A stretch of DNA of 39,670 nt, from positions 1-39,670 of the forward strand of contig VFLE01000046.1 in NCBI GenBank assembly GCA_009885205.1, written 5' to 3'. This DNA comes from Candidatus Shapirobacteria bacterium (lineage in GTDB: Bacteria; Patescibacteriota; Microgenomatia; UBA12405). How positions within the stretch are numbered: position 1 is the stretch's first letter; each line of letters starts with the position of its first letter. The notes under the pieces are model-generated. The model saw only the letters and a list, made by a program, of their open reading frames with translations, did no database searches and was not told the origin of the DNA. Both the position numbers and the translations under genes were made by a program. Shown in pieces: positions 1 through 16,100 of the stretch.

Positions 1-1
1 T

Positions 2-121
2 GGTGAAAAAATCACTGTTGAGAAACTAGCGAGATATCTTGGTTGTTCTTCGAGAACAGTTTACAGAAACATGAGTAACGAACTTAAAAAAGAAAAAGAA
101 CTTTTAAATCAAACATTATGA
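2..121 (+). CDS. C-terminal fragment of a helix-turn-helix DNA-binding protein (5' end outside window)
   Basis: The frame is open from the window edge to TGA at 119-121. It translates GEKITVEKLARYLGCSSRTVYRNMSNELKKEKELLNQTL, and LARYLGCSSRTVYR looks like an HTH turn plus recognition helix. The stop overlaps the next start (ATGA). It is absent from the ORF track because no start lies in the window. Confidence 0.45.
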   Translation, partial: GEKITVEKLARYLGCSSRTVYRNMSNELKKEKELLNQTL

Positions 122-393
122 GTACAACATTTGGAATACCTCAACGTATGATAGACATCGATAAGATATGTGATGAAGACGGAGAATTATTAGATTATAT
201 AAATCATGACTTTTTCGAAAGAATATGGTTTAGGTCACATTACGGACGATGGTTAAATCCTTTAGCATCTAGACTACCTGATGATACTAGAGTATTTCCA
301 TTAGATAATTCAGCACAAGGAATATATACTATTGGAGATATAAAAGAATTCATGGATAGAATAGATAAAGAAAAATCAAATGAAAAAGTATAA
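118..393 (+). CDS. hypothetical early protein (91 aa)
   Basis: ORF track. It is tightly packed, with an ATGA overlap to the upstream frame and a 14-nt overlap with the sigma-like gene. I recognise no family. Confidence 0.5.
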   Translation: MSTTFGIPQRMIDIDKICDEDGELLDYINHDFFERIWFRSHYGRWLNPLASRLPDDTRVFPLDNSAQGIYTIGDIKEFMDRIDKEKSNEKV

Positions 394-1156
394 TATAGAC
401 AATTATTTAAGATACAAAGACGATGTAAAAAAGTCTATATTAAGAATACAACCTAAACAATTAAAAGATTATACTAGAGATGAATTAATAATAATGTTTT
501 TACCATTAGTAGAGAATATAGCTAGAAAATTTTCAACAGCAGACCAAGCTTCAGGAATAATGGATATAACAGATTTATTACAAGAAGGAAGCATAGCTTT
601 AATCTTAGCAATAGACAATATAGAATGGGATAAAATAAATGAATCTGAAGACGAACAAAACACATTAAGATCGTTTCTGTCTAAACGAATAAAAGGTTCA
701 ATTAGACGTTCAATAAACATTAATAGAGGCAGTATACGTATTCCAGAATACAAATTAAATGAAATACGTAATAATCCAGATGATAAAAAAATGGTTGAAA
801 TGTTCTTTAATAGTATATTTGAAAGCGTGGATATTTATTATAATAATGATGACAGTGACAGTGTAAGTTCTGAACATTCTGTGTTTCAGTATGAAGATAA
901 ATCTAAAGAATACAATATAGATTTATTAAATATTTATTTATTTAGTTTATTTAATAAATATTTAACTAAAATTGAATCTGAAGTTTTAAGACTAAGTTAT
1001 GGTCTTGATTGTGATAGATATTCTGGAGTATTAATAGCAGAAATGCTAAATTTTAAAGGTCCTAGTGCTTATGTAAGAATATCTGAGTTAAAAAAATCAG
1101 CAATAAGTAAATTAATAGCGAATGTAGAATCTTCGCAAGTGCTTGATTATATGTAA
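380..1156 (+). CDS. phage-encoded sigma-70-family RNA polymerase sigma factor
   Basis: Region-2-like ITDLLQEGSIALILAIDNIEW and FLSKRIKGSIRRSIN. Region-4 HTH-like ESEVLRLSYGLD...VLIAEMLNFKGPSAYVRISELKKSAISKL. Confidence 0.8.
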   Translation: MKKYNIDNYLRYKDDVKKSILRIQPKQLKDYTRDELIIMFLPLVENIARKFSTADQASGIMDITDLLQEGSIALILAIDNIEWDKINESEDEQNTLRSFLSKRIKGSIRRSININRGSIRIPEYKLNEIRNNPDDKKMVEMFFNSIFESVDIYYNNDDSDSVSSEHSVFQYEDKSKEYNIDLLNIYLFSLFNKYLTKIESEVLRLSYGLDCDRYSGVLIAEMLNFKGPSAYVRISELKKSAISKLIANVESSQVLDYM

Positions 1157-1215
1157 AATGTAAACAAAAGATGTAATTATAATGTTATAGAGTATAAACA
1201 ATTAAATTAAATTAT

Positions 1216-1332
1216 ATGGAAGATTTTGTTATGCACACAATGGCGCCTCTTTTTATTGGAATAATAATGGTTGGCGTTACAGTATTAATGGTTGGTATGG
1301 TTGTACATTTTATTAGAGAATTTTTAAATTAA
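1216..1332 (+). CDS. small hydrophobic (single-TM) protein, 38 aa, not in ORF track
   Basis: Read by hand as MEDFVMHTMAPLFIGIIMVGVTVLMVGMVVHFIREFLN followed by stop. It fills an otherwise empty 190-nt gap. Its leader aattaaattaaattATATGGAA nearly duplicates the leader of the next gene (aattaaattaaatATATGGAA at 1346). Confidence 0.45.
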   Translation: MEDFVMHTMAPLFIGIIMVGVTVLMVGMVVHFIREFLN

Positions 1333-1345
1333 TTAAATTAAATAT

Positions 1346-1912
1346 ATGGAAAATCAAAAGTTGCCTTTGTCTATTAAGTTGTCTAGAATTCAAATAGAGT
1401 TCAAGTCAAATAAAAGTAGATACAATTCGTTCGGTAAATACAATTTTAGATCCGCTGAGGATATACTAGAAGGTTTAAAACCTTTTAATGAAAAATATGG
1501 TGTGTATTTTACAATAAACGAGGATTATATTTATTCTCACGATTTACCTGTGATAATAAGTAAAGCTGCTATACACGATGTTGAAAGCGACAATGTTATC
1601 GAAGTAAAAGCAATTGTTGGTGTAGACTTAGTTCAAAAAGGTATGCAGACGCCACAGGCATTTGGTTCTGCTTCTAGTTACGGTAAAAAATATGCTCTTG
1701 GTAATTTATTACTTATTGATGATACTCAAGATGCTGACGCTTCAAATACACATGGTAAAACAGATCCTGTTAAACCAAGAGTAAAACTAGGTGTTTCAGA
1801 TTTAGCATTTGAAAAAGCTAAAACATTCATAGAAACAGGCGGTTCTATTGAAAGTATTAAAGGTAAATACGATTTAACTAAGGAAGCAGAAGTAATTTTA
1901 TATAATTTATAG
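1346..1912 (+). CDS. erf: ERF-family single-strand annealing recombinase
   Basis: N-terminal YNSFGKYNFRSAEDILEGLKP and central FGSASSYGKKYALGNLLLID match the ERF-family pattern. It sits next to an exonuclease and an SSB. Confidence 0.75.
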   Translation: MENQKLPLSIKLSRIQIEFKSNKSRYNSFGKYNFRSAEDILEGLKPFNEKYGVYFTINEDYIYSHDLPVIISKAAIHDVESDNVIEVKAIVGVDLVQKGMQTPQAFGSASSYGKKYALGNLLLIDDTQDADASNTHGKTDPVKPRVKLGVSDLAFEKAKTFIETGGSIESIKGKYDLTKEAEVILYNL

Positions 1913-1913
1913 T

Positions 1914-2645
1914 ATGAAGAAAGAATTAATATTAGAAAGACTTAAAAATGATGAAGACTATTATGGTCTTTTTGGTCAACAGTACCTTAGCAATTCAAAT
2001 GTTGGTACATTATTAACAAATCCATTAGCATTAAGAGATACTCAACAGTCGAATATAAACTTCTTGATTGGTGGTTATTTTCATACGGCTATATTAGAAC
2101 CAGATAAACTTAAAAAGTATCGAATAGTTGAAGCATCGACTAGAAATACAAACATATATAAGGAAATGTCTGGTGGAGAAATGTGTCTGTTAAAACACGA
2201 AGTAGATCAGTTAGAGTTAATGATAGACAAAGTACTATCTAATGAAGTATGTAAAGGTTTAATCAGAGCAGATAACAATGACTATGAGGTTCCTGGTATT
2301 GCAGAAATTGCAGGTTTAATGTGGAAAGGTAAAGCAGATATACTTAATCATTCTGAAAAATTAATTGTAGATTTAAAAACTACATCTAATCTAGCAGACT
2401 TTAGATATTCTGCTAAAAAATATAATTACGATAGTCAAGCATATATATATAAGCAATTATTTGGCTACGATATGGTTTTTATGGCCATAGACAAAATAAC
2501 AAATCAAATAGGTATATATGACTGTTCTGATAAATTCTTAGAAACAGGCAAAGAAAAAGTTGAGAAAGCTGTTGAAGCATATAACTTGTTTTACAACAAT
2601 CCAGACTTTATTCCTGAAAATTATTTTATTAACTTAACTTTATAA
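1914..2645 (+). CDS. PD-(D/E)XK exonuclease (RecE / exodeoxyribonuclease VIII-like), recombination partner of Erf
   Basis: GKADILN...LIVDLKTTS gives the D...D-x-K motif, followed by YDSQAYIYKQ, as in the PDDEXK exonuclease VIII-like family. Synteny with erf supports the call. Confidence 0.65.
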   Translation: MKKELILERLKNDEDYYGLFGQQYLSNSNVGTLLTNPLALRDTQQSNINFLIGGYFHTAILEPDKLKKYRIVEASTRNTNIYKEMSGGEMCLLKHEVDQLELMIDKVLSNEVCKGLIRADNNDYEVPGIAEIAGLMWKGKADILNHSEKLIVDLKTTSNLADFRYSAKKYNYDSQAYIYKQLFGYDMVFMAIDKITNQIGIYDCSDKFLETGKEKVEKAVEAYNLFYNNPDFIPENYFINLTL

Positions 2646-2647
2646 TT

Positions 2648-3001
2648 ATGAACAATGAACAATTTGAAGTTACACTTCCGCATGAAGGTAACAATGAACA
2701 ACTTAAAGTTACACTTCCCTATGAAGGTAACAATGAACAATTCGAAGTTATACTTCCGTATGAAGGTAACATAGATGATGCTATTAAATCAGCAGAAGAA
2801 TATTCTCTTAAACTAAAAAACATAAAAAGAGACGGTATTGATGTAGATAATATTGATATAATTACTGGAATAACAGTTGCTACATTTGTTGGTTCAAAAA
2901 ATAAAATACTAGAATTATTAGAAGAATTTGGTGGAGAACAAAATGCATTAGATACAATGGATGAACCTTATGGTAGAATAAGTAAATTAGTAATCAATTA
3001 A
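2648..3001 (+). CDS. acidic repeat protein (117 aa), function unknown
   Basis: ORF track. The N-terminus is three 13-aa repeats NNEQ[FL][EK]V[TI]LP[HY]EG. My count is about 23 D/E against about 10 K/R. Confidence 0.6.
   Translation: MNNEQFEVTLPHEGNNEQLKVTLPYEGNNEQFEVILPYEGNIDDAIKSAEEYSLKLKNIKRDGIDVDNIDIITGITVATFVGSKNKILELLEEFGGEQNALDTMDEPYGRISKLVIN
2651..2767 (+). repeat. three tandem 39-bp in-frame repeats
   Basis: The units are 2651-2689, 2690-2728 and 2729-2767 (aacaatgaacaaNtNNaagttaNacttccNNatgaaggt), with a few substitutions each. Confidence 0.9.
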
Positions 3002-3019
3002 ATAAATAAATAAATAAAT

Positions 3020-3340
3020 ATGGCTTCAATTATCAATGCAAGTATCAACTTAAATGAAATTCCAAAAGACAAGATTATCAGTGGTGCTAAAGGTAAATAT
3101 CTACCTATTACAATAGTACTTAACGATGACTTTGATAAATTTGGAAACCAAGGTCCTATTACTGTTGGACAAAGTAAAGAAGAACGAGAGTCTAAAGCTC
3201 CTAAGGTTTATCTAGGTAATGTTAAAGTACTTTGGACTAATGGAGAAAATGTAAATGTAGCTCCTAAAGACGGTCAACAACAAAGCGCAGCACCTAAAAA
3301 GGCAACACCTAAAGAAGTGTTTGACGATTTACCGTTTTAA
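3020..3340 (+). CDS. small single-stranded DNA-binding protein (SSB-like, 106 aa)
   Basis: The C-terminal acidic tail ...EVFDDLPF resembles the canonical SSB tail (E. coli DDDIPF), preceded by a Q/P/A/K-rich linker. The position in the Erf/exonuclease module fits. Confidence 0.55.
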   Translation: MASIINASINLNEIPKDKIISGAKGKYLPITIVLNDDFDKFGNQGPITVGQSKEERESKAPKVYLGNVKVLWTNGENVNVAPKDGQQQSAAPKKATPKEVFDDLPF

Positions 3341-3342
3341 TA

Positions 3343-3534
3343 TATACCAATGCTCGCTGTTAGGCTCGACATATTTTAAAAAGGGTTTATATTAAGGTCG
3401 GCAAACCAGAAACCCTGCTCTTGTAAAAGCTCCGTAACTGATAACTCGGTAAGCTACAAGAAAGACCAAGGTTGGTATAATGTACCTATAGCGCTTCCCG
3501 TAAGATCAGCCTTTAGGTCTTTTGTTAGTTAGTT
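3343..3534 (+). ncRNA. candidate structured RNA (class unassigned) in a GC-rich non-coding island
   Basis: No ORF longer than 10 codons and visibly higher GC than the flanks. A closing helix pairs tataccaa 3343-3350 with ttggtata 3472-3479. Nested helices pair gggttt 3383-3388 with aaaccc 3410-3415, and tcttgta 3419-3425 with tacaaga 3455-3461. An intrinsic terminator follows. Confidence 0.35.
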
Positions 3535-3557
3535 AAACCCCATTTATTGGGGTTTTT
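3535..3557 (+). terminator. rho-independent terminator
   Basis: An 8-bp stem aaacccca / tggggttt (3535-3542 with 3548-3555) has a 5-nt loop tttat and runs into a T tract (ggggtttttc). Confidence 0.75.
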
Positions 3558-3590
3558 CTATCTATAATTAGTAACAATTAAATTTAATAG

Positions 3591-5306
3591 ATGCAAGTAA
3601 ATAACACGGAGATTAATGGTTTCTTAATCGATACTTTTAATCAATATGGTCTTGAAGAAGGAAAATCGCAGGGTATATGCCCGTTGTGTTCTTCTGATAG
3701 AAAACCTAAGAATGAGAAAGCTAAGTGCTCTTCTTATGATTGGCAAAAAGGATTAGGTACTTGTCATAACTGTAATAAGTCGTTTCAACTACATACTTAT
3801 CAGCGCAAAGGCGCATCTGAAAAGATATATGTTAGACCAGAAGTTAGTGCTATACACACTAACAGTTCTAAGGTTGTTGAATGGTTTAAAGGTAGAGGTA
3901 TTTCTGAACAAACGCTTACTGAATTAAGAATAAGCGAAGGTCCAGAATTTATGCCTCAGACAGGAAAAACTGAGAATGTAATAAAGTTTAATTACTTTAT
4001 GGGTGATCAATTAATTAATATAAAATACCGTGATGGCAGAAAGAATTTTAAACTATTTAAAGGTGCCGAAAAAGTTTTTTATAATATTAATAGTATTGTG
4101 GGTTTCGAGTATTGTGTTATCGTTGAGGGAGAAATGGATGTGCTCGCGTTGCACGAAGCTGGTATTACTAATGTTGTATCAGTTCCAAATGGCGCAACAT
4201 TAAACAGTAATAATCTAGACTATTTAGATAGTTGTATTGATTACTTTGAAGACAAAGAAAAGATTATATTAGCAGTTGATTCTGATGCTGCTGGACAAGC
4301 ATTACAGTCTGAACTTATACGTAGATTGGGTTCTGAAGTATGTTATCTAGCATCGTTTGAAGATTGTAAAGACGCAAATGAATATTTATTAAAATATGGA
4401 AAAGAAGCACTATCAAAAAGAATATCAAAAGCTAAACCTGTTCCGCTGGAAAATGTTAAAACTTTTAGAGACATCGAAGATGATGTTACAGATTTTGTGC
4501 GAAACGGTTTCAAACCAGGTTTTCAGATTGGTTTGGATAATTTTGATAGTATTTTCTCTACTTATACGGGTCAGTTTATTACTGTTACTGGTATTCCTAG
4601 TAGTGGTAAGTCTGATTTCGTTGATCAAATGGTTGTAGGTTATAATGGTAACTATGGTTGGAAAACAGCATTTGCTTCGCCAGAGAATCAACCTACATAT
4701 TTACATGCTCATAAATTAATGCGTAAAACTTGGGGCGATATGCCATCAGCAGAAGATATACACGGAGAAAAGTGGAATCAAATAGCAACGCATGTTAATA
4801 GTAGTTATTTCTTTATAGATATGGAACGTTATACGTTAGAATCTGTTCTTAGAAAAGGTGCTGAACTAGTTAAACGTAAAGGTATTAAATGCCTTGTTAT
4901 AGATCCATTTAATAAGGTTAGAGCAACAGATGCTTCTGGAGATGTTAATGTATATACATTGGAATATCTACAACAGATAGAAGTCTTTGCTAAAAAGTAT
5001 GATGTATTAGTTATTGTAGTTGCTCATCCAACTAAAATGTATAAAGACAGAGATGGTAAAATAGAAGAACCAACTATGTATAATATAAAAGGTGGTGGTG
5101 AATGGTACGATGCTTCTTATCACGGATTACTTGTACATAGAAACTACGAGGAAAAAACAGTTAAAGTAAAGGTATTAAAAGTTAAGTTTCAAAACCTCGG
5201 TGAGAACGGAGCAGAAAGTCATTTCAAATGGGAACCTAAATCTGGTTGTTTTATACCTCATGAACCAGTCGATGCTAGTGGAGATAAATTACCATGGGAA
5301 AGTTAA
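3591..5306 (+). CDS. bifunctional DNA primase-helicase (T7 gp4-like)
   Basis: Zinc ribbon CPLCSS...CHNCNKSF. TOPRIM motifs VIVEGEMDVLAL and AVDSDAAGQ. Helicase Walker A VTGIPSSGKSDF, Walker B CLVIDPF and VVAHPTK. Confidence 0.9.
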   Translation: MQVNNTEINGFLIDTFNQYGLEEGKSQGICPLCSSDRKPKNEKAKCSSYDWQKGLGTCHNCNKSFQLHTYQRKGASEKIYVRPEVSAIHTNSSKVVEWFKGRGISEQTLTELRISEGPEFMPQTGKTENVIKFNYFMGDQLINIKYRDGRKNFKLFKGAEKVFYNINSIVGFEYCVIVEGEMDVLALHEAGITNVVSVPNGATLNSNNLDYLDSCIDYFEDKEKIILAVDSDAAGQALQSELIRRLGSEVCYLASFEDCKDANEYLLKYGKEALSKRISKAKPVPLENVKTFRDIEDDVTDFVRNGFKPGFQIGLDNFDSIFSTYTGQFITVTGIPSSGKSDFVDQMVVGYNGNYGWKTAFASPENQPTYLHAHKLMRKTWGDMPSAEDIHGEKWNQIATHVNSSYFFIDMERYTLESVLRKGAELVKRKGIKCLVIDPFNKVRATDASGDVNVYTLEYLQQIEVFAKKYDVLVIVVAHPTKMYKDRDGKIEEPTMYNIKGGGEWYDASYHGLLVHRNYEEKTVKVKVLKVKFQNLGENGAESHFKWEPKSGCFIPHEPVDASGDKLPWES

Positions 5307-5552
5307 ATGGCAATTAAGAAAGGTATTGACATGGGAGATTATCTTCCATCTAATAAAGAAAGAAAAGCTTATATATGGTGTATTAATAATGGTATTTATA
5401 TATCACCACAAGCTAAATCTTTAATAGAATGGTTTATATGTATTGAGATGAATAATAAGATTAATACAAGTCCAGACGCATACAAGAAAGTAGAAATATG
5501 GAAACAAATATTCAAATATTATACATACTATTATGAAAAATATAAAAAGTAG
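5307..5552 (+). CDS. hypothetical protein (81 aa)
   Basis: ORF track. It starts one nt after the primase-helicase stop and overlaps the next gene by 20 nt. Confidence 0.5.
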   Translation: MAIKKGIDMGDYLPSNKERKAYIWCINNGIYISPQAKSLIEWFICIEMNNKINTSPDAYKKVEIWKQIFKYYTYYYEKYKK

Positions 5553-6171
5553 TTTCGAAACTGCAGATGAAGCTTATTCTTATTTATTAGATAAAATAAT
5601 ATTAGAAGGAGTAGAATTTGATAATACAAAAGCTTTATTCAATGTAGGTTTTTATATAGAAAATCCAACAGATAATTATATAAAAGATGTTAATAGAAAA
5701 TGGAATCCAACATACGCAATGAGAGAATGGTTATGGTATCTATCTGGTGATCCTAGTGCTTTAGAAATATCTAGATATGCTCCAATATGGAAAAATATGA
5801 TGGATGAGAATGGCAATGTTAGATCTAACTACGGTTGGCAATGGAAACGTAACGATCAAATAGGTAAAGTGATTAAAATGTTACAAGATAATCCTAATAC
5901 TAGAAAAGCAACAATATCTATATATGATGGAAAAGAAATAGGTGCGTATTCTAAGGATACTCCGTGTACTTATGCTATACAGTTTACAATATTAGACAAT
6001 AAACTGAATATGGCTGTTTTAATGCGTTCTAATGACTTATGGTACGGTTTTTGTAATGATCAATTTTGTTTTTCAAACTTACAAATAGATATTGCTAAAA
6101 TTTTAGGTATTGAAATTGGTACTTATTATCATTTTGCTCATAATTTACATTTATACAACGATAAATTATGA
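5533..6171 (+). CDS. thymidylate-synthase-superfamily enzyme, dCMP hydroxymethylase/methylase-like (212 aa)
   Basis: Family motifs MREWLWYLSGD, SNYGWQW, NPNTRKATISIYD, catalytic Cys in TPCTYAIQF, MRSNDLWYGFCND and HNLHLYN. Counting from the Cys gives R+20, D+23, G+27 and Asp at +31, where ThyA has Asn177. Confidence 0.75.
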   Translation: MKNIKSSFETADEAYSYLLDKIILEGVEFDNTKALFNVGFYIENPTDNYIKDVNRKWNPTYAMREWLWYLSGDPSALEISRYAPIWKNMMDENGNVRSNYGWQWKRNDQIGKVIKMLQDNPNTRKATISIYDGKEIGAYSKDTPCTYAIQFTILDNKLNMAVLMRSNDLWYGFCNDQFCFSNLQIDIAKILGIEIGTYYHFAHNLHLYNDKL

Positions 6172-6353
6172 TACCAAAAGAAAAAGCAATAGAATTAGTA
6201 GAAAAATATTTTTATTTATTTTCAGTAGAATTAGAAAACACAATTGCTGATTACGAAGCTAAAGAATGTGCATTAATAGTAGTTGATGTATTAACTAAAG
6301 AAACAGGAGCTAAGTATTGGTATGACGTTAAAAAAGAATTAGAAAATTTATGA
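6168..6353 (+). CDS. hypothetical protein (61 aa)
   Basis: ORF track, with ATGA overlaps at both ends. Confidence 0.5.
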   Translation: MIPKEKAIELVEKYFYLFSVELENTIADYEAKECALIVVDVLTKETGAKYWYDVKKELENL

Positions 6354-7186
6354 AATATTATCTATACCATATATATGGTAAAAAAATAGGAGTCACGTGT
6401 GATATTAAAGATAGGTTAACTAGACAACAAGGTTATGGTTATAAAGAATATGAAGTATTAGATTCTAGTGATGATATAGATTATATATCAAATAAAGAAA
6501 TAGAACTTCAAAAAATACATGGATACAGAGTTGATAGGCAATCTTACAAAGAATTAGTAACTAAATATAAATTAAATAAAATGGTATTAAACGTAACAGA
6601 ACAAACAACTACATTTCCTTTTCCTTTGAACAAGTTAAAAGGTAACTTGATGGACACTTTAGGTGTTAAAATGGATAATTCTTTTGGCAAATATGTTTTA
6701 ACTGCAGATCTATGCAACTGGATAGTTAAAAATGCTAAAACATCTATGTATAACCCAGCGCGTTCATTTATCTACAATAAAGCAATGGATGAGTATTGTA
6801 AGTCATTAGGTAAAAAGTCTATGGCAATGGAACATAAGAATCAACCTGAAGAAGTTGAAGTTGAAGTTCCTAATGTATATGACTTGATTAGAAAATGGGC
6901 TGATGATCGTGGTATCTATAGAAATGGTGATACTAAAACTCAGTTTGTAAAACTAATGGAAGAAGCTGGTGAATTAAGTAGATCTATTCTTAAAAACGAT
7001 AGAGATGAATTCATCGATGCAATTGGCGATATGATGGTTGTATTAACCAATTTAGCTGCGTTAGAGGGATTAAAAGTTGAAGACTGTGTTGTATCAGCTT
7101 ACGATGTAATTAAATCAAGACAAGGCAAAATGGTAAATAACACTTTTGTAAAAGAAAATAATAACGAAATAATAGCAACATTATAG
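6350..7186 (+). CDS. fusion protein: degenerate GIY-YIG-like N-terminus plus C-terminal MazG-like NTP pyrophosphohydrolase
   Basis: The C-terminus LMEEAGELSRSILKNDRDEFIDAIGDMMVVL carries the E-x2-E ... E-x2-D metal-binding pattern of all-alpha MazG-type NTP-PPases. The N-terminus YYLYHIYGKKIGVTCDIKDRL resembles a GIY-(x)-YIG motif. Confidence 0.6.
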   Translation: MKYYLYHIYGKKIGVTCDIKDRLTRQQGYGYKEYEVLDSSDDIDYISNKEIELQKIHGYRVDRQSYKELVTKYKLNKMVLNVTEQTTTFPFPLNKLKGNLMDTLGVKMDNSFGKYVLTADLCNWIVKNAKTSMYNPARSFIYNKAMDEYCKSLGKKSMAMEHKNQPEEVEVEVPNVYDLIRKWADDRGIYRNGDTKTQFVKLMEEAGELSRSILKNDRDEFIDAIGDMMVVLTNLAALEGLKVEDCVVSAYDVIKSRQGKMVNNTFVKENNNEIIATL

Positions 7187-7187
7187 T

Positions 7188-7568
7188 ATGAAAGAAAAAA
7201 GTATTGTTTTTAGAGATCCTATCGTAGAAAGAGTTGTAGAAAAGTTTGTATCTAGGTCAGATGTTGGTTTTAAGAAATACGGTCATACTTTACATGATGA
7301 ACGTACTAAAAAAATGAAAGGTCTTGCTAAGTACTTAAACGATGTACAAGAAGAATTAATGGATGCGGTGCTATACATACAAGCATGTAGAGAAGAAATT
7401 CAAGACTTAACTGAAGAAGCGTTGATTAAAGATTTTGAAGATGCCGATTACTCAGCTTTTGATGATTTAGAAGCATTAGAAAATATATCAAACAGCTCTA
7501 TTGGTGATATTAAAGTTAACTACGAATTGGTTGACGTTAAGAAAGAAAAATACGGTCATCGTAACTAA
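7188..7568 (+). CDS. second MazG-like / all-alpha NTP pyrophosphohydrolase (tentative)
   Basis: FKKYGHT...LNDVQEELMDAVLYIQ resembles the short phage NTP-PPase family. Only one clear E-x2-D helix is visible. Confidence 0.4.
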   Translation: MKEKSIVFRDPIVERVVEKFVSRSDVGFKKYGHTLHDERTKKMKGLAKYLNDVQEELMDAVLYIQACREEIQDLTEEALIKDFEDADYSAFDDLEALENISNSSIGDIKVNYELVDVKKEKYGHRN

Positions 7569-8026
7569 TGAAAAGGATAAGTAGAAAAAAAGGACCAGTT
7601 GTTTCGAAGAAGGTGATATATGATGGTATCACCTTCGCTTCTGGTTTAGAAAAGTATATGTACAAAGCTTTAAAGGAAGCAGGTATATATACAGAATATG
7701 AAAAACATACTTACGAGTTGTTACCTTCTTTTAATTTTAATAATGAGTGCATAGAAAGACAATCTAATGGTAAAGGTGATTTTATAAATAGAGGAAATAA
7801 AAAAGTATTAAATTTAAAATACACTCCTGATTTTGTAGGTCATGAATTTATAATAGAAACTAAAGGTAGAGCTAATGATTCTTTTCCTTTACGTTGGAAG
7901 ATGTTTAAATACTATATGTCATTAATTGGTGACAAAAGAATGTTATACAAACCTCAATCGCAGAAAGACTGTGATGAGACAATTAGATTAATACTAAAAC
8001 AAAGACAAGATGACATTAAACAATGA
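7568..8026 (+). CDS. DUF1064-type PD-(D/E)XK endonuclease (possible junction resolvase)
   Basis: YDGITFASGLEKYMYKALKEAGI ... YTPDFVGHEFIIETKG ... KMFKYY follows the DUF1064 pattern (DGI-F-S--E---Y--L ... Y-aDF ... vE-KG). Confidence 0.6.
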   Translation: MKRISRKKGPVVSKKVIYDGITFASGLEKYMYKALKEAGIYTEYEKHTYELLPSFNFNNECIERQSNGKGDFINRGNKKVLNLKYTPDFVGHEFIIETKGRANDSFPLRWKMFKYYMSLIGDKRMLYKPQSQKDCDETIRLILKQRQDDIKQ

Positions 8027-8162
8027 TGAAAAAGGTTGGGAATTAGCTATTGGTACGTATCCAGGTATTTTATTTGGAATTAGAACCTATCAAGAAGAAA
8101 CATTTGATACTCATGTATTGTATTTACCATTCGTAAACGTAATATTTACTATAGACAAATGA
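8010..8162 (+). CDS. possible small ORF (50 aa), not in ORF track
   Basis: Read by hand as MTLNNDEKGWELAIGTYPGILFGIRTYQEETFDTHVLYLPFVNVIFTIDK. It fills the 8027-8158 gap, and its stop overlaps the next ATG (ATGA at 8159-8162). Confidence 0.35.
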   Translation: MTLNNDEKGWELAIGTYPGILFGIRTYQEETFDTHVLYLPFVNVIFTIDK

Positions 8163-8725
8163 TATATGTAGAAGATGATTTCTTAGATATTAATCTAATT
8201 AATGAATTAAATAATGATGAAAGTGATTTCCAGGAAGTAAAAGCTCCTGGAAAATTTTTTTGGGTAAAAATACCTTCTAATGATTTTGTAGAATTAGTTT
8301 GTAATAAGATTTCTAAAATAGAAAATGCAACTATAAAACCAATATTAGGTTTCTTTAGAGAAGCTAAAGAAGGTCAAGACAATGATTGGAGAATACATAA
8401 CGACTCTATAATAGAAGGTCAACAACCTGACAGAGCTATAGTATTGTATATTTCAGAAAATAATTATTGTGATTTAAACGGCACAGCTTTTTGGGAACAT
8501 TGGAAACATGGAGAAACATTTGAAGATATTGAACCTGAAGAATATAATAGACTATTAATAGAAGATTCTAATGATAGAGATAAATGGATATTAAAGTCTG
8601 TAGTAGGACATAAACAAAACAGAGTAGTATCTTATCCATGTAATTACTTTCATAGTAAATATCCTAATGAATTTCTAAATAGTAGAAAAGTATTTGTAAT
8701 GTTTTATAAAGTAGAGAAAATATGA
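8159..8725 (+). CDS. 2OG-Fe(II) oxygenase-like protein (tentative)
   Basis: H-x-D in WRIHNDS, then PDRAIVLYISEN...LNGTAFWEH, a distal His in CNYFHSKYP and Arg in NSRKVFVMFY. This is the double-stranded beta-helix dioxygenase layout. Confidence 0.5.
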   Translation: MIYVEDDFLDINLINELNNDESDFQEVKAPGKFFWVKIPSNDFVELVCNKISKIENATIKPILGFFREAKEGQDNDWRIHNDSIIEGQQPDRAIVLYISENNYCDLNGTAFWEHWKHGETFEDIEPEEYNRLLIEDSNDRDKWILKSVVGHKQNRVVSYPCNYFHSKYPNEFLNSRKVFVMFYKVEKI

Positions 8726-9402
8726 GAATATGGCATATAAGTGATACGCATAGTTATCACAATTTACTAGATGTACCTAAAGATATAGATATGGTAATAC
8801 ATTCTGGCGATTGTAGTAATCCTAGAGATCCGTATAATAATGAACCTGAGGTTAGGGAATTTATTCATTGGTATAAGTCTTTACCTATTAAGTATAAAAT
8901 ATACGTAGCTGGTAATCATGACTCTAGTATTGAAAAGAAATTAGTTACTAAAAAAGATTTTGAAGACTATAATATTATATATCTTGAAGATGATTTTATA
9001 CATATAGACAAATGGAAAATTCACGGTAGTCCAATGACACCTAGTTTTTCTAATTGGTCGTTCATGAAGAGTAGAGATAAACTAGATAAGCACTGGACGC
9101 GAAGTATAGATGATGATGTTGATATATTAATCACACACGGTCCACCTAAAGGCATATTAGATGTTTCTGAAGATAGGAATCATAATTTGGAAAACTGTGG
9201 ATGTAATGCTCTTAAAAGACATGTTATAACTAGAATAAAACCTAAGTTAATGTTATTTGGTCACATACATAATAATAAAGAAATTATAAATGCTGGAACA
9301 ATGAAGTTATCTATATGTGATACCATATTTAGTAATGGCTCTGTAGTAACAGATGGAAGGTTTGGAAAATTAAGTAGTAATGGTAATATAATAAATTTAT
9401 GA
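8722..9402 (+). CDS. calcineurin-like metallophosphoesterase
   Basis: Motifs in order: WHISDTHSYH, HSGDCSN, VAGNHD, ITHGPP, FGHIHN. Confidence 0.85.
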   Translation: MRIWHISDTHSYHNLLDVPKDIDMVIHSGDCSNPRDPYNNEPEVREFIHWYKSLPIKYKIYVAGNHDSSIEKKLVTKKDFEDYNIIYLEDDFIHIDKWKIHGSPMTPSFSNWSFMKSRDKLDKHWTRSIDDDVDILITHGPPKGILDVSEDRNHNLENCGCNALKRHVITRIKPKLMLFGHIHNNKEIINAGTMKLSICDTIFSNGSVVTDGRFGKLSSNGNIINL

Positions 9403-9617
9403 AAGAAAAAATAGAAAAATATAATAGAAAAGCAATATTTTCTACATTAAAAGATTATGAATTTACATGTAAAGAACATAGTTATATAGAAGTAACTGAA
9501 TGGAATAATGGCGAAGGATTTGATGTAAATGTTTGTAATTATACAGATAAAACAATAGCACTTACTCACGGAGAGTTTAAATTAATTAAAAAACTTATTA
9601 AAAAATTAGAAGAATGA
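9399..9617 (+). CDS. hypothetical protein (72 aa)
   Basis: ORF track, with ATGA overlaps to both neighbours. Confidence 0.5.
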   Translation: MKEKIEKYNRKAIFSTLKDYEFTCKEHSYIEVTEWNNGEGFDVNVCNYTDKTIALTHGEFKLIKKLIKKLEE

Positions 9618-9814
9618 GCGATTTTGTAGAAAGAATGCACGAAGAATTAAAACAATTAAAAGAAAAAAAGGATAAGTTAAACGACTTTATTGATAATAAT
9701 TTAAAATTCAAAGAATTAAGTAATATTCAAAGAATTTTATTAATAAATCAATTTAATGCGATGGACTTGTATTACTTTGCTTTAGAATCAAGAATAGAAT
9801 ATATCAACGATTAA
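9614..9814 (+). CDS. hypothetical protein (66 aa)
   Basis: ORF track, with an ATGA overlap upstream. The sequence looks coiled-coil-like. Confidence 0.5.
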   Translation: MSDFVERMHEELKQLKEKKDKLNDFIDNNLKFKELSNIQRILLINQFNAMDLYYFALESRIEYIND

Positions 9815-9823
9815 ATAAAAAAT

Positions 9824-10045
9824 ATGAAAGAACAAAGTTTAGTTGAAATGAAAAATAAAGTTGAAGCACTTATTAGAGTGCTTCAAAATGTTATGGATGA
9901 ACAACAGCATTTAACTGTATTAGCAGCTGGAACATTAGAAACAATTAAATTAATGCCTGGTTATGACGATGCTATTAAAGCAATGACTGAAAAAGCTAGT
10001 AAGGAATTAGAAGAAAGTAAACCAAAACCGGTTTTAAATACTTAA
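9824..10045 (+). CDS. hypothetical protein (73 aa), last gene of the + block
   Basis: ORF track. A strong hairpin terminator follows it. Confidence 0.5.
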   Translation: MKEQSLVEMKNKVEALIRVLQNVMDEQQHLTVLAAGTLETIKLMPGYDDAIKAMTEKASKELEESKPKPVLNT

Positions 10046-10147: not shown

Positions 10148-13100
10148 TTACTTTAAACCTGGTGATTTTAAACCACCACCTGAAAGACCTGGAGATTTTA
10201 AACTACTACCTCTAGTCGCAGATCCTGAATCTTCTTCTTTATCTTTTATACCTAAATTCTGCTTACTATATCCAAAAATCATAGCTATTCTCTGCCAATC
10301 TTCATTTTGAGAATCAAGTGCACCAGCTATATTTTGTATTTTTTGATAAATTCTATCTACAGGTATGTTTGTACTTACTGATATAAAAGAAGAAGAAGCT
10401 TCTACTATAGATTTAGTAGGTATAACTTTATCTCCTTCTGGATTGAATTCTTTATTATATTCTAATGCTTTTATACCTTTAAGAATCTGTCTAAACTTAA
10501 TACCAACCATTGGTGATATATTAAGTAATTCAAGAACTGGTGCATAAACTCCTTCTGGTGTTCCAGTAGTATCGTACCATTTTATTAATGCATTTTTAAC
10601 AACTGAAAGAGCAACGTAGTTCATGCCCATACCTTTTAGAATATTGTCAGCAATTCCATTTACCGTTCTAGTAATTCTTTGTTTACTATCTTTTTCTTTC
10701 TTTTCTTCATCATCGTCATCATCACCCCACATTATAGCAAATACTAAGTTTTGTAAAGCATTAAACATAATATTCTGCAAAGCGCCGTAATACACGATTT
10801 TACCTACATTGTTAGCAAGACTTCCCCTGCCTTTAACAATATCTATTGCAGCTTTTTTCATAATTCTGGAATACTGAAAAGGTGTATTCATAAATGATAA
10901 AAGAATTCTACCTGTTGTACTTGCTTGATTAGCAGATATTTTAGATACGTCAGCAGATTGTTGGGATTTTTCAGATGTTTGATAGAAATCACTCATCGTC
11001 TTTTTCTCAGCTTGTTCGTCTGTATAACCTTGTTTTTTATATGTGTTTAATCTATTTCTATAAAAACTAGAACCACCAAAAGCAATAGCAACAGCATCGA
11101 ATACTCTAGTAGCTATAAAACCGTTTGTTGAAATCCAATTTACAATACGTCTATATTTATTAATAGAATCATCTCCTTTTTGACTATCCATTAACTGAGC
11201 TATTTCAGACTCAGCAACATCATTCATAAGACCTGATCTTCTGTCTTTTAGATAAGGAGAATTCCAAAGATACTTTACATCTTGCCAGAATTGTTTTTGA
11301 TTAGCAAAAGCTAGTGCAACTTGTGCAATATTATTGTCAGATGTGTTGATAAAATTGACAGCACTTAAAAGTTGTAATACTGCAGATCTAGTATTAAGGA
11401 ACATTACATTTGCTGTAGATTTATTTAACCAGTTTAATAACTTACTGTTAGCACCTGGGTTTCTATTAGTACCACTTTTTAATCTACCTAGCATGTTTTT
11501 CAATGCTTTTACATATTCACCTCCATATACTGCTTCAATTTTGCTTAAGTTTTCTTTAGAGAAAATCTTATCAGCTCTATTCTGCCAGTCTTGTAGATAC
11601 TTAGCTCTATTCACCTTAGATATTATATCATTCATGTCACCTAAGATACTACCAAAACTCCAATTGCTTTCTGGTTCAACATATCCATTAGCTTGTTTAG
11701 AAAGTAAACTAACAGAATTAGCAAAATCTTTTAATTTAGGATTTGTCCTAACAATATCTGTTAAATTAAATTTATCTTTATTATTTATACCAGGTATTTT
11801 ATATCTTGCTTTATCCCATAAATAAACCCTAACAGCTTGATCGTATGTGTAACCTTCATAGCTAGTTTGTTGTGATAATAGTTTTATTATACCTTTATGT
11901 TGTTTAGTTATAACGTCTTTCCAATCACCATACATTTTCTGTCTAGCAACCATAAGTGTTGTCATAGCTTCACTATACGGTTTAATTAAGTTTTCGTTAA
12001 AGAATTCAAGTTGTGCTTCTCCCATTGCACCTTTTCCAGATGCCAATTTATACAACAAACCTTCAAAATCTTCATCACCTGGAGGAAGATATGCAAAATC
12101 TAATTTCTTTCCTTTACCAATGTTCTTTGCTGTTTCTTCTGAGAAAATTTCAGCCTTTGGAATCCCTTTGTTCTCTTCTATGATTTCATTCATAGTAAGT
12201 TCTAAATTAGAATTTCTAAAAGCTATTTGTTTTATCTTTTTAGAATTAGCATCTAAAGCGTCTAAGACTTGTTTCGTTAATGGACCATCAGCATTTTTCT
12301 TAACATGAAAATCAAAACTATTATAACCCTCAGCCATTTTATTTATTATAAAAGTAGCTATTGCTTTATCTGTAGATGTAGACATTCTAGGAACCTTAAA
12401 AGGAACTGTGTCTGCTTGAAACAAATCAGACATTTCTTGTCTAACCTTTTTTATTTCAATAGGATCAGTCTGCTTTTTTAATTTAGCAGTTAACTTATCC
12501 ATTTCTGTGTTTTTTGCAAGTTTTGATAATTTACCATTCATTATTGCTTTATCTATGTCTCTAGCAATAACAGATTGTTGTGTCAGATTTAAACCACTTA
12601 ACAAAGGACTTATTACCGCGTTAGCAGTCTCTGCTAAACTATATTTAATAGCAGAATCATTTTCTTTGTTTGATTTTATAACTGTTGTTTTATAGTAATA
12701 TCCACCACCAGCAGCTTCATTGTCTTCATCAAATATACCTACTCTTACTGATATTTCATTAGAACTAGAACCTATACTACTTTTTAATATACTTTCTTTT
12801 AATTCATCGGTTAATTGTTCTTTTATATTTATTTTTAGTTCATCTATAACTGCATCAACTACATTATTATCAGAAAATTGATACATGTTAATAAAATCTA
12901 TCGCTTTATCTTTTTTAGTAATATAACTATCCGTAAGATCGAGATGTAAAATACCAATACTTTCACCTCCAAACAACTCAACTTCTTTAGGTATTGAATT
13001 ATTGTGTTCTCCAATAAGCAATCTTAAATCATTTATTTTTTTTGGTAAATATATCATACTTGCTAAACCATAAAGATAAATTTGTTGGGTGTTAATAGCA

Positions 13101-16100
13101 CTTGAAATGTCTATCATAGATTTTTCTTGATCATCAAAAGTAGTTACTAAACTTAATATACCATTATGAAAATTTATAGGGTCCATAGATAACCAAAAAG
13201 TATCAAACTCATCTATATCTGAATTACGATCTATACTTGCATCAATGCTTAAATCATAGTAAATATGATCTGAAAGAGTAAGAAAAGCACGACCCTCCAT
13301 CATTTTACCTTGTATATCTAATTTATTTCCTTTCGTTAGATTAGGAGCGTCAAAACCGTATGCATTTACAAATGCAACAAAATCTATTTTTATTAAATTA
13401 GGCATGTCATAAGAACCTAATTTTCCATCTTGAAAACCTATTGTTATATATTCTTCGTCCATGTCTAATTTAAACTCGTCTTGACTTATTTCTTCTTGTT
13501 CTTTTAATATATCTAATTCGTCCTCTCTATTTATAAAAATTTGAAAATTAGAATCTATAATTTCTCTAATATTTCTTATAGGTTCAAGTAAATCTAACTT
13601 TCTTAATTCTCTTTTAATATTTCTTATTTTTTCTTCTAATTCTTGTCTTGAATCTACTTCTAATTCAAATCTAAATAAATTACCTCTATTTAAAGAAGAA
13701 ACATTTTTAATTAATTTAGTGTTTTTTTCTTTACTGTTATTTTTAAAGTCTACTTCATTTTCATCAGTTAATAATGAATATGCTAAATCCATAGAATCTA
13801 TATAATCCTGTTTTTCTTTGACATTTGAAAGTTTAAAAACTTCTGATATTAAAGGTATTTCTTCTGCTTTAAAACTTTGTCCTGCTTCTACACCAACAAC
13901 TTCTCCAACACCAGAATTAAGTCTGTCTTCAAATCTAACTGCTATTGATGGTTTGTAATCATTATCTGATGCTATAAAAAAGTCTCCATTTGTTAAATGT
14001 GTAGTAGCATAACCCAAAGATCTTTGACCAGTACACCATAAAGCATTTGAATTTATATTTCTAGAAGCTAGAGAGTTTAATGATAAGATATTTTCTTCTT
14101 TATCACTTTTATCAAACTTAAATATTTTTTTATTATCAGAGTCTGAAACTTTTCTATTGTTTTCCCAATCAGAAATATATTTTTCATTTTTTTGCATGTT
14201 TAAAAAACCGTAAATAAATGCAGGATTTTTTAATTCAGTATGACTGTAATTCTCAAATACTTTTTTTATTAATTCTTCATCATTATAAGAATCTATAGGT
14301 GTCAAAGTTGTGTTATATTGAGATCTTTTAAACGGTTTTCTTTCAACTACTTGATTTATAGGATTAGAAATATATCTATTAGATAATGCATCATTTAAAA
14401 ACAAATATGCAAAGAAAGGATTTAATTTTAAACCATTAGGTTTTTCATATTTTACAGTGGCATCTTCATTCCATTCTTCTGCACCTGGTTTAATATTATT
14501 AATGTAACCTCCATTATGCCATGCGGCAGTTGGTATTTTTTCAAAATTTTCACCTTCTTCATCTATAAAATTAATTTTAAAATCACCTCTGTACCAAACA
14601 CTTTCTAATAATAACTGAATAGATTCATATTGTAATTCTTGTTTTTTGAAAATATCTTCTTCTCTATAAGTATCATTATTTTTTAAAGCTGTAAAATGAT
14701 CTATATAATTTTGATCGCCTTCATTTATAGCTTTCTCAAGCATTCTATCTATGTAATCTTCTGTATAATCTTTAATCAAAAAAGGATTAATAGCACCATT
14801 GGTATTTCCTATTGGTATATTCATTGAATCTATTAATTCTATTATTCTTCTAACAACTTCCTTTTCAACTTCTTCATAATTTTTAAGAGTATGAAGTTTT
14901 AAACTTCCTGGGGTTGTATCTACAGTATCAGAGTATTGCAATACTTTTACATAATAGTTTTTATTAGAAGTAAAATAATTATCTATAATAATTGTATTTG
15001 AATCACTAAGTTTATCAGTTGGTCTTTTTACTATATCTTTGTAATTGTTTTCGTATTTTTTATTATAACCTTTATAAACGGCAACACCTGAAATTAAGTC
15101 AGATTCTTGATCTAATACTTCAGATAAACTAAATTTAATTGTATCACTAATAACTGGCATAGAATCTACACCATAATAAACATTATTCGCTATTCCTTCT
15201 GATAAAGCTTTTTGAGTTTTTAATAGTTGAGTTTTATTCAATAATTTATATTGACCTTGTCTTTTTTCTTCTTCTAAACTGAATTTAACTGAACTACTTT
15301 TACCTTTAGCCAAATCATTAAGAACTTGTGTTCTAATAACATCATCTTTAAGACTGTTGTATAGGTTAGGTTTCTCTTGACCTATTTGCTCTATAAAATC
15401 AGGATTACGTAGTAATCTTCTCGCTTCTTGAAGAACCATTACGTCTCCAAACAACTCTCTTAATGCTGTTCTTCTATCGAACCAAGCATTAGTTGTTAGT
15501 TTTTCGTAATCTAAGAATTTTGAAATTTCTTCTTCAGGATTAACTGAATTGTATTTTCTTATTATTTTCTTTGCATCTTCTTCAGAGTAAAATGATTGAA
15601 GGAAAACTGCTCTATTAATATCTGCAACTTTTTGAAATTCTCCTTTTTCATTTCTTTCTTTTAAATACGGAGGTATTTTTTTAGAAGCATAACTAGATTG
15701 ACCTGTAACTTCATCTACTGGATTATTTATTACATCATATACTAATTTCCAATTATTATACATGAGTGATTCAAGTCCTTCGCCTGTTTCAAATGTGATT
15801 CTTTTCATCATCACCATAGATCTATCTGCTAGTAACTTTTTAAAGTTTCTAAATTCTAGTGTTTCTACATTTGGAGATCTTAATATTTCATCTGCAACTT
15901 GTCTAGCAACAATCCTAGCTGGTGATTCTTTTTTGATTATAGCTTTAAATACATACTCAACATTTCCAGTAGTTAAATTAAATGCTTTTGTAGGTTTTAA
16001 AGACTTGAGTTCTTGTTTCTCTTCAGGAGTTAAAGGTTCTTCTTTATTTTGTAAATCTAAACCTCTCTGTAAGTCTCTTAGATCTTTTTTTAATTCTTCT

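Follow-up and report, generated by a model that had tools for sequence, protein, structure and literature searches.

The 39,670-nucleotide contig VFLE01000046.1 (assembly GCA_009885205.1, deposited as Candidatus Shapirobacteria bacterium), analysed over its full length and hereafter called the window, is DNA of an uncultured tailed phage, marine and flavobacterial, with a GC content of ~30%. Its terminase has its nearest relatives in podophages of Flavobacterium, Cellulophaga, Tenacibaculum and Maribacter (48-66% identity). The minus-strand half carries the large terminase, the portal, a major structural protein, two crAss-type muzzle proteins and an open reading frame (ORF) of 3395 amino acids (aa), and the plus-strand half is a densely packed early or replication operon in which a sigma-like factor, an Erf annealing protein, a PDDEXK exonuclease and a primase-helicase are followed by the region considered here. 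That region contains a gene for a protein of the thymidylate synthase (TS) family (5533-6171) and, next to it, a gene for a protein with a MazG-type nucleoside triphosphate (NTP) pyrophosphatase domain (6350-7186); from their sequences, the two are predicted to be, probably, a deoxycytidine monophosphate (dCMP) hydroxymethylase and a deoxycytidine triphosphate pyrophosphatase (dCTPase). An earlier sequence-only reading had proposed a cytosine C5-modification pathway built from these genes and several of their neighbours. The present analysis, which draws on residue alignments and on 82 related loci collected from IMG/VR and ENA, retains the dCMP-type TS and the NTP pyrophosphatase, narrows the predicted product to the 5-hydroxymethyl form and dispenses with the wider cluster.

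The TS-family protein and its active site

The first gene (5533-6171, plus strand) encodes a minimal TS-family protein of 212 aa, for which a dCMP C5-hydroxymethylase is the best predicted reading. The protein matches Pfam PF00303 (Thymidylat_synt) at E=2.5e-26 and 92.8 bits, against a cut-off of 24.3, and the PHROG thymidylate synthase profile at 3.7e-41; together with the catalytic Cys145, the block Arg165-Ser166-Asn167-Asp168 and His206-x-Tyr208, these matches place it in the TS superfamily, as had been claimed at first reading. Its best sequence matches in the PDB are the cytidine monophosphate (CMP) hydroxymethylase MilA (6e-23), bacterial ThyA (7e-19) and the dCMP hydroxymethylase of phage T4 (1e-13). 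An exact-sequence look-up of the protein returned no record, and the 3.9-kb region, compared by megablast with 50,697 phage records representing cultured phage genomes, gave zero matches.

Hidden Markov model (HMM) and MAFFT alignments with the E. coli ThyA and T4 gp42 sequences of annotated records define the key residues as Glu65, Trp86, Tyr100, Arg124, Asp142, Cys145, Thr146, Met164, Arg165, Ser166, Asn167, Asp168, Gly172, Asp176, His206 and Tyr208. In both alignments Cys145, Arg165 (+20), Asp168 (+23), Gly172 (+27) and Asp176 (+31) fall on C146, R166, D169, G173 and N177 of the E. coli enzyme, which bears out the spacing that the sequence-only reading had counted from the cysteine as well as its placing of an Asp opposite ThyA Asn177 and T4 Asp179; the corresponding T4 gp42 residues are C148, R168, D171 and D179. 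The full set of equivalences between T4 gp42 and the window protein comprises E60/E65, R123/R124, D145/D142, C148/C145, T149/T146, R168/R165, S169/S166, N170/N167, D171/D168, D179/D176, H216/H206 and Y218/Y208, and Thr146, Met164 and Asn167 are likewise common to both enzymes.

Four features of this active site bear on substrate and product. An Asp at ThyA position 177 selects dCMP (PMC8670742), and Asp176 aligns there with T4 Asp179, with the MilA Asp and with ThyA Asn177. An acidic residue replacing Leu143 is the mark of a hydroxymethylase rather than a methylase (PMC13326640), and Asp142 occupies that position by alignment, three residues ahead of the cysteine, like T4 Asp145 and the MilA Asp. 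Only 4 residues (NDKL) follow Tyr208, the equivalent of ThyA Tyr209, compared with 55 in ThyA and 28 in T4 gp42, and on this alignment the C-terminal lid of ThyA is absent; the truncation itself had been noticed before, with a small miscount of five residues after the HLYN motif. Finally, a preference for deoxyribose goes with Ser167 and Arg126, in place of which MilA has Ala and Lys, and the MilA A176S/K133R double mutant switches to dCMP (PMC5175136); the window protein has Ser166 at the Ser167 position and Arg124 at the Arg126 position, both invariant, and thus lacks the Ala and Lys of the MilA/BcmA type. The substitution D169N, which marks the newly described flavin-dependent 5-hydroxy-dCMP synthases (PMC13326640), is not present, Asp168 being kept. 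Since an Asp stands at the Leu143 position, Asp169 is retained and the folate-closing tail is missing, the predicted product is 5-hydroxymethyl-dCMP and not 5-methyl- or 5-hydroxy-dCMP.

A canonical ThyA is not indicated on any of these grounds: in addition to Asp176, Asp142 and the four residues past Tyr208, the NCBIfam ThyA equivalog models score about 85 bits at most against cut-offs of 108-427, the best of them reaching 85.5 bits where its cut-off is 327. All of 184 distinct close homologues keep the diagnostic signature unchanged, with Asp168 and Asp176 each found in 184/184, and their C-terminal tails measure 1-12 aa. A search of the whole library (E up to 0.001) yielded 8948 clusters at 50% identity, and the family has thousands of metagenomic members; among the aligned representatives of the best 137 of these 8948 clusters, Asp occurs at positions 143, 169 and 177 in 135/137 and Asn177 in none, and 17/133 of the best cluster representatives are as short as the window protein.

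Among cultured phages, the choice of Asp or Asn at position 177 appears from these alignments to track known chemistry. Asn177 is kept in the TS homologues of a ViI-like phage and of Pseudomonas phage ZC01, lineages that make 5-hydroxymethyldeoxyuridine, and the ZC01 enzyme is annotated as a dUMP (deoxyuridine monophosphate) hydroxymethyltransferase. Asp177 is found in T4 gp42, in the TS of Enterococcus phage nattely and in both TS homologues of Bacteroides phage BF486P2. In nattely (L191:2483-5350) the Asp177 TS is flanked by a P-loop protein and followed by a dUTPase-fold gene and a beta-glucosyltransferase gene, an arrangement that suggests synthesis of glucosylated 5-hydroxymethylcytosine (5hmC). 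The enzyme of Agathobaculum phage AB434P2 (L190:2860-3522) is annotated as a dUMP hydroxymethyltransferase, yet carries Asp177 and an equally short C-terminus; judged by their residues, both this annotation and that of the nattely protein as 'thymidylate synthase' look wrong.

The MazG-domain protein and its pairing with the TS gene

The second gene (6350-7186, plus strand) encodes a two-domain protein of 278 aa, a predicted dCTP pyrophosphatase, in which the MazG-type all-alpha NTP pyrophosphatase domain is confined to residues ~172-271, within the C-terminal ~105 aa (6860-7186). This domain matches Pfam MazG at 1.1e-5 (26-28 bits against a cut-off of 22) and PRA-PH at 2.1e-5 (25-28 bits against 21.3), the ORF matches the PHROG MazG-like profile at 3.9e-35, and a family profile finds SSO3215 in the PDB at 1.6e-8, as well as 2yxh, YpjD and HisE. 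Within the metal-binding motifs EExxE...ExxD..D, residues Glu36, Glu37, Glu40, Asp55 and Asp59 are invariant and Glu52 nearly so; with the profile scores above their cut-offs, these acidic motifs establish membership of the all-alpha NTP pyrophosphatases. The sequence-only reading had counted two MazG enzymes, of which this one stands for its C-terminal domain; the second, the 126-aa ORF at 7188-7568, is not supported, having no match in Pfam, PHROG or Foldseek and an hhalign probability of 0.9% against the MazG domain.

The N-terminal ~170 aa of the MazG protein (6350-6859) have no Pfam or PHROG match. In some relatives this domain is a stand-alone ORF of 63-119 aa directly after the TS gene (L019:3989-4180; L041:588-947 and 998-1339), the MazG domain then being in a separate ORF or absent, and the module begins with YxYxxxxxKIG(C/V)T...R. 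Residues 3-30 resemble a GIY-YIG domain by eye only, and no such assignment is claimed.

The coupling of the two genes extends well beyond the window. In 80/82 related loci the TS gene has a MazG ORF downstream of it in the same orientation, with a gap of <=60 nt in 63/81 pairs measured (window included), and the pair recurs on at least three unrelated backbones that differ in their terminases and replication genes; this recurrence is stronger evidence of functional coupling than adjacency in a single operon. More broadly, T4, ViI-like, Enterococcus and Bacteroides phages each combine a hydroxymethylase of the TS family with a (d)NTP pyrophosphatase of one kind or another. When metavirome DNA was selected for cytosine modification, TS was the top associated domain, Asp177 was found in the modified contigs, and domain co-occurrences including that of TS with PRA-PH (PF01503) were reported to be often specific to cytosine-modified contigs (PMC8670742). 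PF01503 also matches the MazG domain of the window.

Some ~28 smaller sibling phage contigs (for example L032:7053-10930, also L044, L059, L085, L019 and L061) carry a TS homologue 65-68% identical to that of the window in a fixed block, absent from the window, whose order is DUF6378, a 305-aa protein with a GDS(H/L)-like motif, a 301-aa protein of unknown function, a 298-aa pyridoxal phosphate-dependent enzyme (PALP, threonine-dehydratase-like), TS and a MazG protein of ~100 aa. Its gene content makes the block a candidate cluster for the hypermodification of cytosine by way of 5hmC.

Among the closest known systems is that of T4. Like T4 gp42, the window TS has Asp for Asn177, Asp for Leu143, Thr for His147 and Asn for Cys168, keeps Asp169, Ser167 and Arg126 and lacks the ThyA lid, and each enzyme is paired with an NTP pyrophosphatase of the all-alpha superfamily (in T4 the dCTPase/dUTPase gp56). 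The two TS proteins are nevertheless only 26-29% identical, a weaker match than those to MilA and ThyA, and the window protein is 34 aa shorter. The pyrophosphatases also differ in kind, the window having a MazG/PRA-PH domain fused to an unknown N-terminal domain and gp56 being of the dUTPase_2 type (in Pfam, gp56 matches dUTPase_2 and, weakly, PRA-PH). Because gp56 and the MazG domain have no direct similarity, the parallel is one of role and superfamily only, which is as much as can be kept of the link to gp56 drawn at first reading. Unlike T4, the window lineage yielded no gp1-like kinase, glucosyltransferase or phage DNA polymerase.

The contigs of Yang et al. (2021, eLife, PMC8670742) contain the same pair, PF00303 with Asp177 and PF01503/PF03819, in the same setting of uncultured phages, coastal samples included, but their clusters usually also carry a carbamoyltransferase or a deaminase, neither of which was found in the window lineage. 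In a cultured phage, the closest TS gene is that of BF486P2 (WAX06796.1), annotated as a deoxycytidylate 5-hydroxymethyltransferase, which is 49.5% identical over its full length, bears the same signature and is also short (226 aa); unlike the window TS, it has no MazG neighbour. The BF486P2 locus (L001:3662-9690 in OP172667.1) includes a second Asp177 TS, a trimeric dUTPase/DCD-like gene, an AAA_28 kinase-like gene and a carbamoyltransferase (Carbam_trans_N/C, 1e-34), all annotated as 'hypothetical' except the TS genes and dut. This content suggests a 5-carbamoyloxymethylcytosine pathway resembling that of Yang et al. (2021).

MilA, the CMP 5-hydroxymethylase of mildiomycin synthesis in Streptomyces (PDB 5B6D, 5JNH), is the best solved-structure match of the window TS and shares its Asp at both the Asn177 and the Leu143 positions, its chemistry being that of a hydroxymethylase; it differs in the Ala and Lys at the ribose-selecting positions, where the window protein has Ser and Arg, and in a large helical C-terminal domain that the latter lacks. 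A further analogy, and no more than that, is offered by the 2-aminoadenine phages, in which MazZ, a MazG-like pyrophosphatase encoded beside a base-modifying enzyme, supplies the dNMP (deoxynucleoside monophosphate) substrate. MazZ is a weak profile match to the window MazG (E=0.68), and the MazZ/PurZ pair differs from that of the window in base (G/A versus C), partner enzyme and chemistry.

Predicted pathway, missing genes and rival explanations

In the model that we favour with reasonable rather than high confidence, 5533-6171 and 6350-7186 would constitute a two-gene pre-replicative module placing 5hmC in the phage DNA. The MazG domain would first cleave dCTP to dCMP and pyrophosphate, thereby both removing the competing canonical nucleotide and supplying the substrate. 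In the second step, to which the residues point strongly, Cys145 would attack C6 of dCMP and a methylene group would be transferred from 5,10-methylene-tetrahydrofolate, with Asp176 selecting cytosine and Ser166 and Arg124 selecting deoxyribose. As the pocket would be open, with Asp142 in place of Leu143 and no C-terminal lid, water instead of hydride would add to the exocyclic methylene, giving 5-hydroxymethyl-dCMP and tetrahydrofolate. The third step, not encoded in the sequence examined, would require kinases to form the di- and triphosphate, either Cmk and Ndk of the host or a phage protein not recognised as such, after which the host replicase would incorporate the modified triphosphate, no phage DNA polymerase having been found. 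DNA carrying 5hmC in this way would be protected from restriction enzymes. The scheme would work without the 126-aa protein, the resolvase, the 2-oxoglutarate (2OG) oxygenase and the phosphoesterase encoded downstream, and no enzyme that would decorate 5hmC further was found in the lineage (window plus ~25 kb of flanks).

Related contigs made it possible to read ~25 kb beyond the window. Neither in the window nor in these ~25 kb of relatives' flanks was a dNMP kinase, a DNA polymerase, a glycosyltransferase or a carbamoyltransferase found, which agrees with the absence of a dNMP kinase and a glycosyltransferase from the window as first read, now supported by a Walker-A scan, tblastn and Pfam. 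Pfam searches of the remaining window ORFs gave no nucleotide enzymes, no nucleoside-diphosphate (NDP)-sugar genes and no dCMP/dCTP deaminase neighbour. A DNA polymerase was likewise not seen in positions 1-10045 of the window or in the flanks read from ~65-kb relatives (L166:1-7342, L167:1-10000 and L092:1-10000), despite the presence of primase-helicase, Erf, exonuclease and resolvase genes, and replication in this lineage appears to depend on the replicase of the host. With no kinase, polymerase or transferase found, the steps from 5-hydroxymethyl-dCMP to DNA are assigned to host enzymes or unrecognised phage proteins. The dNMP kinase of T4 is gp1 (PMC13326640; bioRxiv 10.1101/2024.12.05.627091), the gene for which was not located in this analysis.

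Several points weigh against the proposed module. The model is based wholly on residue signatures and gene context, and adjacency in a packed, co-directional phage operon is by itself weak evidence. On the side of the TS protein, bit scores favour MilA (84.7) and ordinary ThyA (71) over T4 gp42 (54), the protein carries the signature of the T4-type enzymes without belonging to their clade, and the equivalent of Arg127 is Lys, Gln or His in its family. The dCTPase assignment of 6350-7186 is itself inferred, as the determinants of specificity are unreadable from sequence, and BLASTP of the MazG domain against T4 gp56 gave no significant similarity. Regarding the later steps, a kinase-like (P-loop) ORF adjoins TS in the Enterococcus, Bacteroides and ViI-like loci examined. 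The Walker-A scan of the window, L166, L167 and L092 returned the helicase, a MoxR-like ATPase and chance motifs with no kinase candidate, and tblastn against 187 loci gave no matches either to the kinase-like, carbamoyltransferase and dUTPase proteins of BF486P2 or to T4 gp56 and beta-glucosyltransferase. The absent kinase and polymerase are the main weakness of the model and, at the same time, its sole potentially new aspect.

This weakness feeds the rival that survives best, although it is unlikely: since no kinase would carry the product to the triphosphate, the two proteins might act on the nucleotide pool and leave virion DNA unchanged or only partly modified, with dCTP drained for AT-rich synthesis or 5-hydroxymethyl-dCMP made for another purpose. 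MazG genes are common in marine phages without TS homologues, and the AT-rich genome (~30% GC), with no phage dNMP kinase or DNA polymerase found, also speaks for such a role. The strict dCMP-hydroxymethylase signature and the tight TS-MazG coupling on several backbones suggest, on the contrary, a dedicated pathway; contigs with an Asp177 TS and PRA-PH/MazG have been experimentally enriched as cytosine-modified DNA (PMC8670742), and such TS homologues expressed alone in E. coli give some incorporation (PMC13326640).

Somewhat less probable again is an activity like that of the Xanthomonas phage Xp12 enzyme, a dCMP methyltransferase, which would make 5-methyl-dCMP and put 5-methylcytosine (5mC) in DNA. 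An Asp at the Asn177 position suits any dCMP-using TS, and several environmental Asp177 homologues have been shown to make 5-methyl-dCMP (bioRxiv 10.1101/2024.12.05.627091). Methyl transfer, however, needs the folate hydride in a closed, water-excluding site, whereas here Asp142 replaces Leu143 and the lid is absent, and there is no dCMP/dCTP deaminase neighbour like those of the 5mC systems (bioRxiv 10.1101/2024.12.05.627091).

Two further identities for the TS protein have very little probability each. That of an ordinary thymidylate synthase or a dUMP hydroxymethylase, giving dTMP (deoxythymidine monophosphate) or 5-hydroxymethyl-dUMP, would fit the Pfam Thymidylat_synt match and the label 'thymidylate synthase' that the Joint Genome Institute applies to many homologues; against it stand the change of Asn177 to Asp in every close homologue (184), the ThyA equivalog scores below cut-off and the retention of Asn by the ViI-like and ZC01 enzymes. 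A CMP (ribonucleotide) hydroxymethylase of the MilA/BcmA kind, acting outside DNA synthesis, is brought to mind by MilA as the best-scoring solved structure by sequence (6e-23), but the ribose preference of MilA needs Ala176 and Lys133 (PMC5175136) where the window TS has Ser166 and Arg124, and the gene sits in a phage replication module. Least probable of all is a flavin- and O2-dependent 5-hydroxy-dCMP synthase of the RB69 gp48 type feeding glycosylated 5-hydroxycytosine, with which the window TS shares Asp at Asn177 and an acidic residue at Leu143 (PMC13326640) but not D169N, Asp168 being present in 184/184 homologues, and for which no glycosyltransferase or NDP-sugar genes were found.

Beyond the two-gene 5hmC module itself, a bolder extension is put forward tentatively: widespread marine flavobacterial crAss-like podophages (~66 kb) might swap C for 5hmC by means of two dedicated genes only, with no dNMP kinase or DNA polymerase of their own, either using the kinases and replicase of the host or obtaining a new accessory activity from the 126-aa protein or the MazG N-terminal domain.

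Neighbouring genes, phage lineage and significance

The remaining ORFs of the region follow the TS-MazG pair far less faithfully: whereas a MazG ORF is present in 80 of the 82 related loci, the 126-aa ORF, DUF1064, the oxygenase and the phosphoesterase occur in 39, 38, 12 and 1 of them, respectively. The five-gene group is not a conserved cluster, and the genes besides TS and MazG are ordinary early-region accessories rather than parts of the pathway. Upstream, an 81-aa ORF with no known domain (5307-5552, plus strand; taken from the ORF list, with no Pfam match) overlaps the TS start codon by 20 nt; it precedes TS in 40/82 related loci and is conserved in window-type phages. The conserved helical protein of 126 aa (7188-7568, plus strand), which lies directly after the MazG gene in window-type phages, has 4064 homologues, the best 120 of which carry no Pfam domain. 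Comparison with the DUF6378 alignment by hhalign was negative, a profile search of the PDB came back empty, and the AlphaFold model is a low-confidence helical hairpin (predicted local distance difference test, pLDDT, 71; predicted template modelling score, pTM, 0.35) with 0 Foldseek matches.

The next ORF (7568-8026, plus strand), overlooked by the sequence-only reading, encodes a 152-aa DUF1064/endonuclease-I-like protein (Pfam DUF1064 5.8e-9, Phage_endo_I 4e-5; PHROG Holliday junction resolvase 1e-12) and is, judging from these profiles, probably a Holliday-junction resolvase belonging to the replication-recombination module and not to the modification pathway. The last two ORFs had been named correctly at first reading, but their inclusion in the cluster does not stand. 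The accessory 2OG-Fe(II) oxygenase of 188 aa (8159-8725, plus strand) has a confident AlphaFold model (pLDDT 88, pTM 0.85) whose top 50 Foldseek matches in the PDB are all 2OG oxygenases, with PiuC, prolyl-hydroxylase and FtmOx1 types as structural neighbours; it shows the double-stranded beta-helix fold, and its invariant His80, Asp82, His165 and Arg176 provide the His-x-Asp...His iron triad and the 2OG-binding arginine. A TET-like role in oxidising 5mC or 5hmC was considered and rejected because of these structural neighbours, with no TET, JBP or AlkB among the top 50, and because of its poor linkage to TS. The accessory MPPED2-like metallophosphoesterase of 226 aa (8722-9402, plus strand) matches Pfam Metallophos at 5e-14 and MPPED2 in the PDB at 5e-27.

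Observations on the wider genome concern the lineage itself. The window contains crAss-phage hallmarks, namely a crAss001_48-related small protein (6.8e-18; 9614-9814, plus strand) and two muzzle-protein homologues (23328-24800 and 24843-28364, both on the minus strand), which contrast with a terminase nearest to those of Flavobacterium and Cellulophaga podophages. The 3395-aa ORF (10148-20335, minus strand), which has no Pfam match and contains an HExxH motif (HEFLHG), lies at the border of the early and structural modules and is kept at ~3351 aa in the relative L004; it may be a crAss-like ejected or cargo protein. In relatives, ribonucleotide reductase genes occur a few kilobases downstream of TS-MazG (L012:12796-14664; L004:4518-6395; L020:11124-12101; L080:4757-6478), as a class-II-like 622-aa protein in some and as an R1/R2 pair in others, and the window has none at that position. 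Just past the end of the window, as read in a relative with 85% terminase identity (L092:3355-4917), a 520-aa protein encoded upstream of the terminase is GroEL-type chaperonin-like by eye.

Cytosine modification is a known anti-restriction strategy, found here, probably, in a new and widespread lineage. Since the chemistry and the residue-based product rule are already established, the gain is one of breadth and not of principle. If the model is true, no known gene set for hydroxymethylating cytosine ahead of replication would be smaller than this pair, its TS enzyme would be among the shortest with that function, and so compact a protein could serve for introducing 5hmC. It would also mean that 5hmC-type DNA is common in phages of marine Flavobacteriia, with a consequent bias in amplification- or restriction-based virome methods and an effect on the interplay of phages with the defences of their hosts.

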